Below, one piece after another: positions 5,217 through 10,868 of a stretch of DNA of 64,000 nucleotides. Location: NCBI GenBank assembly GCA_045661325.1, contig JAZRFK010000041.1, forward strand, positions 15,719 through 79,718. Reading direction: 5' to 3'. Origin of the DNA: Eubacteriales bacterium (GTDB taxonomy: Bacteria > Bacillota > Clostridia > Oscillospirales > CAG-272). The notes under the pieces were generated by a model. It ran no database searches. It had not been told where the DNA came from and saw only the letters and a program-made list of their open reading frames with translations. Within the stretch, counting starts at the first letter, position 1. Each line of letters starts with the position of its first letter. The translations under genes were made by a program, and so were the position numbers.

Positions 5217-5275
5217 GCAAAAGCATAAAAAAAGAGCTTCTTTTCCGCCGCGGATACCGCGGCGGTTTTTCTTTT
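5217..5275. repeat. Boundary repeat R1, copy a (59 bp; contains the ssp terminator hairpin)
   Basis: GCAAAAGCATAAAAAAAGAGCTTCTTTTCCGCCGCGGATACCGCGGCGGTTTTTCTTTT is identical to 9497-9555 except for one base (A/T in the hairpin loop). Confidence 0.9.
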
Positions 5276-5276
5276 T
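5245..5276 (+). terminator. Intrinsic terminator of ssp
   Basis: The stem CCGCCGCGG (5245-5253) pairs with CCGCGGCGG (5257-5265) across a 3-nt loop, followed by a T-run. Two additional hairpins sit upstream at 5176-5197 and 5199-5222. Confidence 0.8.
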
Positions 5277-5313
5277 CTTTAAAAATAAAAACCGCCATCC
5301 TTCGATGACGGTT

Positions 5314-5517
5314 TTATTTTTCTTCAATGTAAAGCAATATATCCTCAATACGACAGTTAAGGATAGAGCAAAGATCGTCAAGCGTGACTGTGCTGACGGG
5401 TTTATTGTGCTTCAATCGGTCAAGCAAGCTCCTGCTGATGCCGTAATCTATTATAAGACGGTAGGTGGATAGCCCACGCGCCTTTAATGTTTCGTAAAAA
5501 GGGGCGTAAGAGATCAT
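5314..5517 (-). CDS. XRE/Cro-C1-family helix-turn-helix transcriptional regulator (67 aa)
   Basis: MISYAPFYETLKARGLSTYRLIIDYGISRSLLDRLKHNKPVSTVTLDDLCSILNCRIEDIL is a typical short XRE HTH. An RBS GGGAGGA lies upstream and a hairpin terminator lies at 5291-5312. Confidence 0.8.
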   Translation of the reverse strand: MISYAPFYETLKARGLSTYRLIIDYGISRSLLDRLKHNKPVSTVTLDDLCSILNCRIEDILLYIEEK

Positions 5518-5594
5518 GGCTATCCTCCCGATACTTTCTTGGCTTTTTCTATTCTTTCACGTTCCTTGTCTATTATACAACTATGCTCTCTATT

Positions 5595-5656
5595 TTGACA
5601 ATTGTCGACAAAAAGAGCATAAAACTATTGACAAAAAAGTAGCATAGTGCTACAAT
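5595..5656 (+). promoter_or_regulatory. Divergent control region: consensus promoter TTGACA-17-TACAAT plus the 10-bp palindrome TTGTCGACAA
   Basis: TTGACA at 5628-5633, a 17-nt spacer and TACAAT at 5651-5656 drive the plus-strand cassette genes. A second TTGACA at 5595-5600 overlaps the perfect palindrome TTGTCGACAA at 5602-5611, a candidate XRE operator. Confidence 0.55.
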
Positions 5657-5721
5657 GATTATACTCTATAAAAAGAGTACAATTGAAGAATAAAGACTTT
5701 GGAGCTGAGAAGGAGAGAACA

Positions 5722-6777
5722 ATGAAAAAGAAAGAATGGGATATTTCCAAAATTATCGCAATTGTCAGTCCGTTCATCGTTTTTTTGTCAAGTCTGATGT
5801 CGTATATGGTACGAACAGACACACACCAAATGGTAGGAGCCAGTACAACATGGATTACTTTGTTTTTATCCATAATTTTTTCGCTCCTTCTGTTCTTTGG
5901 TGTGAATAAAAGCATTGGCTTTTCTGCGTGGCTGATTGGACTTGGCCTTATATTTGTTCCGCTTATTTCCGCCGCTGCTTTTCTTCCCTTGATTTTAGGC
6001 GGATCGATGGCTTTGATTAACTGCATTTTTGCGCAAAAGGAAGAGAATTTGATTTCGTCTGAGGCGGACTCTGGCGCGATAGCGGCTTGCCGCAATGAGA
6101 AAAAGAAGCTACAGACCTTCGTTTTCGTGACGCTGTTTTTCTTAATGCCCAATAGCTTTGGAAGCAGCTCTCTTTTGTCTCTTGCGCTTTTGATTTTAGG
6201 TAACATTGAATTTTTATCGTTTGCTCCTACTGCTACTATGATTAGTTCTATAAGTTCCGCTATGCATCTGGTTGCTTTGCCTGTTTATTTGCTTTATTTT
6301 GGCGCACAGCATCCGTTTTCCGAAAAGGAGAACAAGCCGATGATTGTGGTGGGCTCGGTGCTGACTGTATTGTTTTGCGTGCCTTACGCTTTTCTTGCTT
6401 TGAGAGAAGGCATCGGTTTCGTTTTACCGCTGATTTTGTTGATAAGATTACCCATCGTTTTCTTTGGCTATTTCTGGCTTTGCAAAAAATGGCAGTCTCC
6501 CTATACGTATGCGCTCGTTTCTGTATGCACTGTCATTCTGCCGCCGTACGTCCTGCTCGCCGCAATAGCGGTGGTTGTGGCTCTTGTTGCGCTTTTAGGT
6601 ATAAAGCTCTTCTTTGGAGGTGCCAACAAAAGCAGCCCCTCTCCCTCGAAAAGCTGGGAGGTTACGGAAAATGGCGTTACATATACAATCACGGAGAATG
6701 CAAACGGCAGATATTTTGACGATACCAATAAGGAGTGGGCAACGGACGATGGCGGCAGCAGCTTCTATCGTATTTGA
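5722..6777 (+). CDS. Polytopic membrane protein (351 aa, ~9-10 TM) with a short soluble C-terminal tail; no family recognised
   Basis: The RBS AGGAGAG supports ATG 5722, in-frame inside track ORF 5683-6777. Hydrophobic segments run throughout. The C-terminus reads KSWEVTENGVTYTITENANGRYFDDTNKEWATDDGGSSFYRI. Confidence 0.7.
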   Translation: MKKKEWDISKIIAIVSPFIVFLSSLMSYMVRTDTHQMVGASTTWITLFLSIIFSLLLFFGVNKSIGFSAWLIGLGLIFVPLISAAAFLPLILGGSMALINCIFAQKEENLISSEADSGAIAACRNEKKKLQTFVFVTLFFLMPNSFGSSSLLSLALLILGNIEFLSFAPTATMISSISSAMHLVALPVYLLYFGAQHPFSEKENKPMIVVGSVLTVLFCVPYAFLALREGIGFVLPLILLIRLPIVFFGYFWLCKKWQSPYTYALVSVCTVILPPYVLLAAIAVVVALVALLGIKLFFGGANKSSPSPSKSWEVTENGVTYTITENANGRYFDDTNKEWATDDGGSSFYRI

Positions 6778-6803
6778 TATATCAATAAAATTTTGGAGGA
6801 ACT

Positions 6804-9427: not shown

Positions 9428-9479
9428 AAAATAAGCACAACCCAAGGGCTGTGCTTACTTTATTTGGTGCCGGAAGCGG
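9428..9479. repeat. Boundary repeat R2, copy b (52 bp): terminator hairpin plus a 15-nt fragment of the tRNA-Leu 3' end
   Basis: AAAATAAGCACAACCCAAGGGCTGTGCTTACTTTATTTGGTGCCGGAAGCGG matches 10817-10868 with 2 mismatches. Positions 9465-9479 are the complement of the last 15 nt (...CCGCTTCCGGCACCA) of tRNA-Leu. Confidence 0.9.
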
Positions 9480-9496
9480 AAACTTAAAACGACTTT

Positions 9497-9555
9497 GCAA
9501 AAGCATAAAAAAAGAGCTTCTTTTCCGCCGCGGTTACCGCGGCGGTTTTTCTTTT
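9497..9555. repeat. Boundary repeat R1, copy b (59 bp)
   Basis: It matches 5217-5275 at 58 of 59 positions and lies 17 bp after R2 copy b. Confidence 0.9.
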
Positions 9556-9568
9556 CTCAAAGGGCGCG

Positions 9569-9616
9569 TTAAAAAAGCACCTATGAGAGAAGCTTCTCAT
9601 AGGTGCCGATTTTTTC
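9569..9616. terminator. Bidirectional terminator downstream of yeiH
   Basis: A 12-bp stem (GCACCTATGAGA 9577-9588 with TCTCATAGGTGC 9595-9606) is flanked by an A-run and a T-run. Confidence 0.75.
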
Positions 9617-9635
9617 TTATCTTTACGCGGTGCTT

Positions 9636-10682
9636 TTACACGATTCCCATACAAATTTCCACCAAAAGCGCCACGATGACCACCAGGGCGGAAATGATAA
9701 AGCCGTGAAGCATGGGTCTTGCTCCTGCCTTTTTCATATCGGAGAAGGAGGTGTTAAGGCCAATGGCGGCAAGCGCGCACACCATTAAAAACTTGCTGAT
9801 GCTTTTGGTACCGGACACCACTTGCGTGGGAATGGTAAAGATGCTTGCCACAACGGCCATTGCCAAAAATCCCAAAATGAACCAGGGAAAAATTTTGGAA
9901 AGCTTGAAGTTGGCTTTTAGGTTTTCGGTAGAGACACCGTTTGCCGCAGCCTCTTTTTTCTTCAAACGAAGTTGAATAAGAGCAAACGTGATAACGGTGG
10001 GGATAATGGCAAGGGTGCGCGTCAGCTTGACCATAGTGGCAAAATCGCCTGCCGCCTCGGAAAAGGCGTACCCCGTTGCCACAACCGAGGAGGTGTCATT
10101 AACGGCCGTTCCTGCCCAAATACCAAAGGCCTCATCACCCATCCCCAAAGCGCGACCCATAATAGGGAAGAGAATTATCATCGCCATATCGAACAAAAAG
10201 GTTGCGCTCATAGCGTAAGCCACGTCGTTATCATCCGCGTCAATGGTGGTGGAGATAGCGGCGATAGCAGAGCCGCCGCAAATGCCCGTTCCTGCCGAAA
10301 TAAGATTGGAAAGCTTCCAGTTTAGCCCCAGCGCCTTGCCGATGAAATAGCCGCCGCCAAAGCAGGTCAAAAGAGTGAAAAGCATTACTGCAAGGGAAAT
10401 CCGCCCCACCGTCAGAATGGTTCTGATATTAAGGGAAAGTCCAAGCAGAATGATGGCAAATTTCAAAATCTTTTTAGAGGTAAATTTCAAGCCGGGGGTA
10501 AAAACAGCGACCTTTTTTAAAAAGGTGTTTAAGAGCATACCGATGAACATGGCAATGACCGCCGCGCCAATGATATGAATAGGTAAAAGGCTTTCCAAAA
10601 AGCAAGCCAAAAAGGCAATCAGAAAGGAAAGTACAATGCCCGGAAAAAGCTTTAATAAGTTGAGAATTTTGGTTTTTAACAT
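9636..10682 (-). CDS. yeiH: YeiH/UPF0324-family membrane protein (putative sulfate exporter family)
   Basis: The protein is polytopic, and LISAGTGICGGSAIAAISTTI matches the YeiH family signature. The start is set at MLKTKILN (ATG at the complement of 10680-10682, AGGA upstream). The track ORF extends to 10796 through a structured leader. Confidence 0.8.
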   Translation of the reverse strand: MLKTKILNLLKLFPGIVLSFLIAFLACFLESLLPIHIIGAAVIAMFIGMLLNTFLKKVAVFTPGLKFTSKKILKFAIILLGLSLNIRTILTVGRISLAVMLFTLLTCFGGGYFIGKALGLNWKLSNLISAGTGICGGSAIAAISTTIDADDNDVAYAMSATFLFDMAMIILFPIMGRALGMGDEAFGIWAGTAVNDTSSVVATGYAFSEAAGDFATMVKLTRTLAIIPTVITFALIQLRLKKKEAAANGVSTENLKANFKLSKIFPWFILGFLAMAVVASIFTIPTQVVSGTKSISKFLMVCALAAIGLNTSFSDMKKAGARPMLHGFIISALVVIVALLVEICMGIV

Positions 10683-10816
10683 ATGGATGTCCTGTCTTTT
10701 TCTGCTCTTCATATTGCGGTATATCATCAAGTCGCAGAAAGTGTATGCACGGCTATGCCGTGATGATATACTCGCTAAAGCGTGATGATATGCCAAGTCC
10801 CGCTATCACGGGAAAT

Positions 10817-10868
10817 AAAATAAGCACAACCCAAGGGCTGTGCTTATTTCATTTGGTGCCGGAAGCGG
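10817..10868. repeat. Boundary repeat R2, copy a (tRNA-Leu 3' end plus its terminator)
   Basis: See the entry for 9428-9479. This copy overlaps the intact tRNA-Leu gene. Confidence 0.9.

Follow-up and report, generated by a model that had tools for sequence, protein, structure and literature searches.

The window analysed here is a 64-kb stretch of a metagenome-assembled contig (89 kb at NCBI), and the locus in question is the interval between ssp, which encodes an alpha/beta-type small acid-soluble spore protein (SASP), and a gene for tRNA-Leu(CAA). This interval contained two adjacent units, a four-gene accessory cassette and a unit encoding yeiH, each bracketed by copies of the same two sequences, which we have designated R1 (left) and R2 (right); the copies that meet between the two units are marked with a prime. 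The features of the locus, numbered from the first nucleotide of the window, were as follows.

4968..5168, plus strand: ssp, SASP gene (PF00269, E=1e-27), left anchor of the slot
5217..5275, plus strand: R1, predicted ssp terminator region (3′ arm of hairpin 5199-5224, A-run, terminator 5245-5265, T-run)
5276..9427: accessory cassette, 4152 bp, 44.4% GC
5314-5517, minus strand: HTH_26 (helix-turn-helix, HTH) regulator, from Pfam
5572-5656: divergent promoters and predicted palindromic operator, between the HTH gene and the membrane-protein gene
5722-6777, plus strand: multi-pass membrane protein, 351 amino acids, no Pfam family
6804-8780, plus strand: lipoprotein, 658 amino acids, no Pfam family
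8917-9309, plus strand: protein with a transmembrane segment and a Cys-rich region, 130 amino acids, no Pfam family
9305-9373, plus strand: 23-amino acid 3′ remnant of a CFI-box-CTERM gene (E=0.007 against the gene of comparison locus L085)
9386-9413: cassette terminator
9428..9479, minus strand: R2′, displaced tRNA-Leu terminator hairpin and the last 15 nucleotides of the tRNA (9465-9479)
9480..9496, minus strand: 17 bp, degenerate T-arm side of the displaced tRNA-Leu fragment (putative attachment (att) arm), homologous to L081 9634-9656
9497..9555, plus strand: R1′, second copy of the ssp terminator
9556..10816, minus strand: yeiH unit (terminator, yeiH, leader, inverted T-arm fragment)
9576-9607: bidirectional terminator of the yeiH unit
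9636-10682, minus strand: yeiH (PF03601), from Pfam
10683-10775: yeiH leader
10776-10816: inverted T-arm fragment to the left of R2 (the same fragment and the same hairpin adjoin in L081 and L082)
10817..10868, minus strand: R2, terminator hairpin after tRNA-Leu and the last 15 nucleotides of the tRNA
10854..10940, minus strand: tRNA-Leu(CAA), consensus promoter 10983-10954, right anchor of the slot with htpG
11148-12998, plus strand: htpG (Pfam), right anchor with tRNA-Leu

A repeat search that allowed mismatches revealed R1 to be a sequence of 59 nucleotides, present at 5217-5275 and 9497-9555, with one mismatch that fell in a hairpin loop. R2′ (9428-9479) and R2 (10817-10868) shared 52 nucleotides with 2 mismatches (96% identity) at a spacing of 1389 bp, and R2′ was separated from R1′ by 17 bp (9480-9496). 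The order was ssp, R1, cassette, R2′, 17 bp, R1′, yeiH and R2/tRNA-Leu(CAA), and the two units shared their left and right flanking sequences in identical order (R1…R2′, then R1′…R2). The coordinates, lengths and mismatches of this layout had been given by an earlier reading of the same DNA (the original prediction) and were all reproduced. Each repeat was present twice in the 64 kb, where shuffled sequence gave 0.00 expected copies, and a scan of the whole window returned no direct repeats of at least 35 nucleotides other than the R1 and R2 pairs. The terminator within R1 consisted of 9 GC pairs followed by a T-run (5245-5265 and 9525-9545). ARAGORN placed tRNA-Leu(CAA) at 10854-10940 on the minus strand; R2 thus takes in its final 15 nucleotides, and this 3′ 15-mer, TGGTGCCGGAAGCGG, was found in the window at 9465-9479 and 10854-10868 only. 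The R2 hairpin, of 19 bp, directly followed the tRNA. The low guanine-plus-cytosine (GC) content that had been attributed to the cassette proved to be a weak contrast, at 44.4% compared to 46.8% for the yeiH unit and 49.1% for the whole window.

A Pfam scan of the locus genes and of the 30 largest open reading frames (ORFs) between 19.7 and 62 kb detected no integrase, recombinase or transposase domain, in agreement with the original prediction that the window encodes no integrase or recombinase. The ORFs of 19.7-62 kb encoded the dcw cluster, DnaE, RecN and similar housekeeping functions, and the 11-19 kb region was judged to consist of housekeeping genes from its synteny with L081, the closest comparison genome (HtpG 91% identical, approximately 85% nucleotide identity, a separate species). 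One ORF of 865 amino acids amid the housekeeping genes (55460-58057) had no Pfam match at E<=1e-4. A composite transposon or insertion sequence was rejected as a description of the locus, as no transposase domain was found and the repeats are direct, 52-59 nucleotides long and host-derived; an integron cassette array was likewise rejected, as no integrase was found and the repeats are terminators and a tRNA end.

The identity of the boundary repeats was established by comparison with related loci, namely 10 further ssp loci reached via a 90%-identical SASP and the sister locus L081. The 90% protein cluster of the ssp product has 48 members, and orthologues were found in L081 and L092-L101. An orthologous R1 terminator occupied the same position relative to ssp in L081, L092, L094-L096 and L098-L101; in most of the 10 ssp loci it took the form CCGCCG...CGGCGGTTTTTC, with compensatory changes in the inner stem. 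The match between these relatives and the window ended just past the T-run of the ssp terminator, after which different genes followed (melibiase, GH123 and others). Judged from these sequences, R1 is the terminator of the ssp gene itself and not a dispersed repeat; the earlier description needs one correction here, as R1 begins within the 3′ arm of another hairpin close to ssp (5199-5224). The 24-nucleotide R2 hairpin was identical in L082, the next comparison genome (HtpG 80% identical), where it also follows tRNA-Leu(CAA), and R2 can accordingly be read as the tRNA-Leu terminator together with the tRNA 3′ end. With these two identities, the repeats are the conserved edges of a variable interval.

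A different reading would make R1 and R2 members of a dispersed intergenic family, resembling repetitive extragenic palindromic (REP) sequences or miniature inverted-repeat transposable elements, with the bracketing of the two units a coincidence. Both repeats are indeed hairpin-containing intergenic sequence. However, only two copies of each were present in 64 kb, R1 is orthologous to the ssp terminator of many relatives, R2 serves as terminator of tRNA-Leu in L082, and scans of JGI metagenomes and IMG/VR, for which the 24-mer of the R2 hairpin was the one repeat sequence used, gave 0 matches. We regard such a family as highly implausible, and the concern that the repeats might be generic REP-like elements, which had accompanied the original prediction, was dispelled by the copy number in the 64 kb and by the fixed position of R1 after ssp in relatives.

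Alignment of the window with L081 revealed synteny on both sides of the interval, where bglX and ssp precede it and htpG-TSCPD-PGM-LepA-HemN follow. The interval itself differed: from the ssp terminator to tRNA-Leu, L081 encoded three unrelated genes (273, 83 and 165 amino acids), and both yeiH and the cassette lipoprotein were missing from this slot. The tRNA-Leu(CAA) module of L081 (9359-9862; promoter, tRNA, terminator and att remnants) was inverted relative to the window and L082. In L082, tRNA-Leu and htpG were arranged as in the window, with LRR_5 genes to the left. Relatives whose HtpG was 71% identical had neither tRNA-Leu nor the slot and hence did not help with polarity. The contents of the slot varied in every comparison made. 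The earlier view that the cassette and yeiH are alternative occupants of one slot is supported by the different genes in the L081 slot and by the loss of similarity after the ssp terminator in relatives. The empty site that had been proposed as a target for alignment with relatives was not found in collections that contain one genome of the species; this species was represented there by the window's own contig only (exact SASP and YeiH look-ups were empty, and the 100% YeiH match, P0121, was the same contig).

Alignment of the junction between the two units was informative. Window positions 9428-9504 aligned with L081 9708-9634 with 86% identity over 77 nucleotides (E=2e-18). The L081 counterpart is a displaced tRNA-Leu 3′ fragment, approximately 120 nucleotides downstream of the intact tRNA, with 17 nucleotides identical to the tRNA and a degenerate T-arm, cattttaagctc; a hairpin of the R2 type follows the fragment. 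As the 17 bp between R2′ and R1′ carried the same degenerate T-arm, cgttttaagttt, we read it as the arm side of a remnant of the attR type, present in L081 as well, and not as a neutral spacer. On this alignment, an attR-like tRNA-Leu remnant would pre-date, or recur in, both the window and L081 lineages. L082 contained an independent displaced tRNA-Leu fragment of 21 nucleotides.

The homology with L081 did not stop at the edge of R1′ but ran to position 9504, 8 nucleotides inside it (window GCAAAAGC, L081 GCGAAAGC). These 8 nucleotides, GC(A/G)AAAGC, are also the first 8 nucleotides of the original R1. Past 9504 the window continued as R1 and L081 as its own sequence. As the homologies of R2′ and R1′ overlap by 8 nucleotides, the joint is a microhomology junction, and its structure points to illegitimate recombination. 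It is the only novel junction at the locus, because the left side is colinear with a cassette allele and the right side with a yeiH allele.

We therefore favour, with a probability of about 0.55, a reading in which the interval from the ssp terminator to tRNA-Leu is a slot of variable content located at a tRNA integration hot spot and in which, in this genome, two alleles of the slot have been fused head to tail by host recombination. Allele one would have had the structure R1, HTH/membrane protein/lipoprotein cassette and displaced tRNA-Leu 3′ fragment, and allele two the structure R1, yeiH and R2/tRNA-Leu. Such a fusion would take an illegitimate joint, formed where the flank of the att remnant and the first nucleotides of the ssp terminator region share the 8-nucleotide microhomology, plus a single homologous exchange within flanks that the alleles have in common. 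These could be supplied in two ways. In the first, linear donor DNA from a sibling strain would enter by homology-facilitated illegitimate recombination (HFIR). In the second, one allele would be circularised by microhomology and then integrated in the manner of Campbell through R1 (59 nucleotides) or R2 (52 nucleotides). The mirror version, in which a yeiH-bearing circle enters through R2, would give the same product, and the data cannot separate the two. A circle integrating through R1, as in the original prediction, thus stands as one of two equivalent routes to the product, and is not distinguishable from its mirror or from the HFIR route. The accompanying proposal, that host recombination acted without a local recombinase, was judged the most economical route, with no recombinase detected in the window.

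The product would formally be a single-crossover cointegrate of allelic exchange. Such a cointegrate has a single novel junction at microhomology, and this is what was found, with the ancestral state taken from the sister species L081. A RecA-type exchange between R1 and R1′ would remove the cassette, R2′ and the 17 bp, and an exchange between R2′ and R2 would remove the 17 bp, R1′ and yeiH; either event would leave an allele with a single occupant. If the incoming DNA was a sibling strain's copy of the locus, exchanged by homology, this would explain why both tRNA copies carry the same hairpin and why the yeiH unit contains a 98% copy of the ssp terminator. The sequences themselves establish the repeats and what they are (terminators and a tRNA 3′ end), the att remnant in common with L081, the microhomology and the variable content of the slot; the other parental allele, the enzymes and the direction in which DNA was transferred are inferred.

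The head-to-tail arrangement could also have arisen by tandem duplication of the whole slot within the genome, from the start of R1 into the 3′ end of the tRNA, after which the cargo of each copy would have been replaced or deleted. One novel junction and boundary repeats in head-to-tail order are the signature of a tandem duplication, and near-identical tandem units were found elsewhere, in L016 (3 units of 220 nucleotides) and L057 (385 nucleotides). Here, however, the copies share their boundary repeats only, so that at least two further precise replacements would be needed. Both the 17 bp and the tRNA fragment are older than the event, since L081 has them without R1′, and an old event would not leave R1 and R1′ 98% identical while the R1 of L081 has diverged. 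A duplication of this kind is, in our estimate, improbable. Still more improbable is an assembly artefact, in which the assembler concatenated two strain haplotypes of the slot. The source is a contig of a metagenome-assembled genome (89 kb), strain variation is expected at such a locus, and a related cassette was assembled in pseudo-circular form (L086, see below) owing to its flanking repeat. Against this, the 8 nucleotides shared at the join are much shorter than the k-mers of any assembler, the mismatches between the repeat copies (1 and 2) show that these are not collapsed graph nodes, and analogous repeat-flanked cassettes were present in independent assemblies.

The second half of the locus, the yeiH unit, was compared with a set of 81 yeiH loci whose products had 78-86% amino acid identity to the window YeiH (L001-L080 from a scan of genome contigs, at 78-85%, and L084). 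Synteny with the window was absent from all 81, and none of the 80 loci from the contig scan was syntenic with ssp, htpG or tRNA-Leu(CAA). In the window, the start of yeiH is 171 nucleotides downstream of tRNA-Leu(CAA), and the two are in the same orientation. A tRNA lay within 2 kb upstream of yeiH in 14/81 loci, compared to 1.87 expected from the tRNA density of the same loci (Poisson P=1.3e-8), and all 14 of these tRNAs were co-oriented with yeiH (P=6e-5). They comprised Leu-CAG, Leu-GAG, Leu-TAG, Leu-TAA/Met, Met, Pro, Gln, Ser and Trp. In L002, yeiH was located between tRNA-Leu(CAG) and a 57-nucleotide copy of the 3′ half of that tRNA (spacing 1459 bp), and in L044 a LysR-yeiH pair was located inside a 155-nucleotide repeat ending in the 3′ end of tRNA-Gln (2975-3128 and 5509-5663), which with the window makes three loci at which yeiH is bracketed by tRNA 3′ fragments. 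From these distributions, yeiH appears to behave as tRNA-associated mobile cargo in other genomes. The claim of the original prediction that the ancestral locus was ssp-R1-yeiH-R2-tRNA is not supported: no relative had yeiH in the slot, L081 instead shared features of the cassette side, and yeiH behaves as such mobile cargo elsewhere.

Across all fetched loci, 12/46 tRNAs had a downstream direct copy of at least their own last 14 nucleotides, therefore indicating heavy traffic at tRNA 3′ ends in these genomes. Ten of the 12 copies were located at +114 to +230 nucleotides, often with an inverted T-arm 10-mer at approximately +50. The intervening post-tRNA units, of approximately 115-230 nucleotides, consisted of a terminator hairpin, often the inverted T-arm at approximately +50, one or two hairpins and a copy of the last 14-46 nucleotides of the tRNA; examples were L082 8636-8786, L081 9511-9805, L044 (the unit of which folds with z=-7), L016 3341-4003 (three tandem 220-nucleotide units with 97-100% identity), L065, L076 and L079. 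The leader of yeiH in the window also folded into a long imperfect hairpin (10700-10775, minus strand, z=-2.8), which lies after the inverted T-arm fragment and ahead of the start codon and had no Rfam match. Rfam contained no family for the approximately 85-nucleotide unit beside the hairpin, for the repeats or for the post-tRNA units. Elsewhere in the window, a 6S RNA (RF00013, 61 bits, 19432-19638) adjoined tRNA-Gly(CCC) (20732-20805), an arrangement kept in L081 and L082, and the tRNA-Gly of L082 had a 20-nucleotide copy of its own 3′ end at +148.

These observations bear on the best placed of the alternatives, which we nevertheless consider unlikely. Tandem accretion and cis-mobilizable elements (CIMEs) have been described (PMC5704250), as have island arrays with partial tRNAs (bioRxiv 10.1101/2020.12.28.424599). 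By analogy with the former, the yeiH unit is arranged like an islet without an integrase, a CIME in the sense of PMC5704250. It could have been put into the 3′ end of tRNA-Leu(CAA) by a tyrosine integrase acting in trans, in which case R2 and R2′ would be attL and attR, the cassette would lie beyond attR, and R1′ would have been captured by an earlier imprecise excision beside ssp. The attP of an integrase acting at this site would contain GTCGTTTTAAGTTTCCGCTTCCGGCACCA. R2 and R2′ do hold the tRNA 3′ end, and tRNA, unit and displaced 3′ fragment are in the classical geometry. Further displaced tRNA-Leu fragments occur in L081 (17 nucleotides) and L082 (21 nucleotides), and both the 3′-end copies after 12/46 tRNAs, mostly at +114 to +230 nucleotides, and the enrichment of yeiH downstream of diverse tRNAs, with the bracketed cases L002 and L044, are in its favour.

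However, the repeat runs 37 nucleotides past the tRNA into the terminator. Classical integration predicts sequence of the element after the regenerated tRNA and the original flank after the displaced fragment; L081, in which the two hairpins differ, fits this prediction, and the window, in which the intact and displaced tRNA ends carry the same hairpin, does not. Site-specific integration also leaves unexplained the 98% identical copy of the neighbouring ssp terminator in the yeiH unit, and no integrase was found in the window. Searches of IMG/VR with a shorter att-remnant pattern and the R2 hairpin 24-mer revealed no attP match, and the full att-remnant pattern and the 24-mer gave 0 matches in JGI metagenomes. 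A broader version, which we put forward as speculative and doubtful, is that gut Clostridia carry a family of non-autonomous, integrase-less mini-elements that target tRNAs, the cargo-bearing forms of which shuttle yeiH (with or without LysR) among tRNAs and species by means of an integrase in trans. The yeiH half of the locus would then be one such element beside an older cassette, with R1′ as captured host DNA. If true, the basic unit would be approximately 130-220 nucleotides long, would comprise its own terminator hairpin, an inverted mimic of the T-arm, one or two hairpins and a direct copy of the tRNA 3′ end, and would follow roughly one in four of the sampled tRNAs.

Analysis of the accessory cassette revealed a very rare family, as its lipoprotein had only 15 homologues in 5.8 billion proteins. 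The conserved core, a divergent HTH gene and the lipoprotein, recurred in L085 and L087. In L085 this core was followed by the gene of a 235-amino acid CFI-box-CTERM protein (NF041770), the third gene of the family, with which the intact cassette ends. In the matching syntenic position, L081 contained a CFI-box remnant of 42 amino acids (81% identity, E=2e-18), and the CFI-box remnants of the window and L081 were 95% identical over 39 nucleotides; the cassette family was therefore already tied to the slot in the clade. This, with the absence of yeiH from the slot of both relatives, argues against a polarity in which, at the level of the clade, yeiH would be ancestral and the cassette new; it does not indicate which of the alleles received the other most recently.

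Between the HTH and membrane-protein genes, near-consensus divergent promoters (TTGACA-17-TACAAT and TTGTCA-18-TATAAT, 5572-5656) overlapped a 40-nucleotide palindrome (5582-5621), which is probably the operator of the HTH regulator. The lipoprotein had a Gly/Asn-rich C-terminal tail and a confidently modelled beta-rich module (residues 323-560); this module was common to proteins that have MACPF (PF01823) and Flg_new domains N-terminal to it. No family was detectable for the N-terminal domain (40-320). The idea that the lipoprotein is a MACPF toxin is unproven and was set aside: the region shared with PF01823 homologues is the C-terminal module only, profile-profile comparison of the N-terminal domain gave 0.2% probability, and the AlphaFold2 (AF2) model of that domain was of low confidence, with Foldseek matches to beta-pore-forming toxins that were not significant. 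A phage or plasmid origin of the cassette was also rejected, with no tblastn matches.

Repeat-flanked cassettes were found at related loci. In L085 (3803-7409), a 184-nucleotide direct repeat bracketed the intact HTH-lipoprotein-CFI-box cassette, with one copy starting at the stop codon of the GH2 gene upstream and the other at that of the last cassette gene; the loop of the first hairpin in the repeat was flipped between the copies (GAAA vs TTTC). An L085-type unit was also present in an independent sample as a 3561-bp contig, L086, with identical ends of 138 nucleotides and a period of 3423, which represents either a cycle in the assembly graph or a genuine circle. In L081, a 227-nucleotide direct repeat (97%) made up of the ssp promoter region (3827-4053 and 6415-6641) bracketed a 702-amino acid gene in the slot between bglX and ssp, and L092 contained a diverged second copy of the region upstream of ssp. 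Long repeat pairs of this kind were uncommon (12 in the 1.22 Mb of fetched DNA) and concentrated at these cassettes, which fits integration via short conserved regulatory segments. The bglX-ssp interval of the window was a second variable slot (3041..4732, minus strand, 38% GC, four small minus-strand ORFs), at which similarity to L081 stopped at 3040 and resumed at 4733. It encoded a 125-amino acid protein resembling a stand-alone C-terminal domain of the RNA polymerase alpha subunit (4202-4579; PF03118, E=6e-16) next to a 161-amino acid ORF (3715-4200), and the 90% clusters of both proteins held the window's own sequence only.

Several points weigh against the fusion of two slot alleles. The single-occupant alleles (ssp-R1-yeiH-R2-tRNA and ssp-R1-cassette-R2-tRNA) were not found in any collection, with one genome of the species there, and the ancestral junction sequence was taken from another species, L081, at approximately 85% nucleotide identity. 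R2 and R2′ are 96% identical though their L081 counterparts have diverged, so that either gene conversion or a common origin in the recent past is needed. The contig is metagenome-assembled, and the structure described is that of the assembly. HFIR, according to the literature cited in PMC8116780, has been documented in naturally transformable bacteria.

If the fusion of alleles is correct, the locus would be a clean natural example of an accessory gene swap at a tRNA hot spot without a local recombinase, in which homology is provided by the terminators conserved after the two anchor genes and the illegitimate joint by a short microhomology. A cointegrate that keeps both alleles and can resolve to either would be one way in which populations could hold small-scale polymorphism in gene content. 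The analysis also yielded a YeiH subfamily as recurrent tRNA cargo in ruminant-gut Clostridia, miniature att-type scars after many tRNAs, and a rare HTH-lipoprotein cassette flanked by host intergenic repeats. The locus itself looks like a well-preserved, mechanistically ordinary recombination product and not a new kind of mobile element, and its parts can be matched with known systems. It resembles integron arrays in having small, mostly single-function cassettes in series with hairpin-forming repeats between them; integron arrays, however, have IntI, attI and attC, whereas here there are terminators and a tRNA 3′ end, two units, and left and right boundaries that differ. Tycheposons of Prochlorococcus (bioRxiv 10.1101/2020.12.28.424599) also form variable islands by tRNAs, carry transport and nutrient cargo and have full or partial tRNAs that mark successive integrations, but they carry a tyrosine recombinase and replication modules of their own; none was found here, where the units are a single gene or a four-gene cassette.

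The CIME/ICESt1 family of Streptococcus (PMC5704250) is closer. There, too, a unit that lacks an integrase lies at a tRNA 3′ end, with that end and a displaced copy of it as boundaries; neighbouring units accumulate side by side at a single site, and att remnants are common to relatives. The yeiH unit is located at a tRNA 3′ end, contains no integration or transfer genes (yeiH and terminators alone) and is bounded by an intact tRNA 3′ end and a displaced direct copy; element-derived sequence after the regenerated tRNA that differs from the attR flank was seen in L081 but not in the window. The locus differs from CIMEs in that its repeat takes in 37 nucleotides of terminator beyond the tRNA, in that a second, interleaved pair (the ssp terminator) brackets the other unit, and in that the last event looks homologous or illegitimate and not site-specific. 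In HFIR, one homologous anchor and one joint of short microhomology similarly place foreign DNA beside conserved sequence; that process usually deletes recipient DNA, whereas here recipient sequence was duplicated. The overall layout is that of a Campbell single-crossover cointegrate: left flank, A, right flank, joint, left flank, B, right flank, resolvable either way. It differs in being a natural case, in which the ‘vector’ is a 17 bp att remnant, the flanks are 59 and 52 nucleotides long, and the circle, if any, would have been closed by an 8-nucleotide microhomology.

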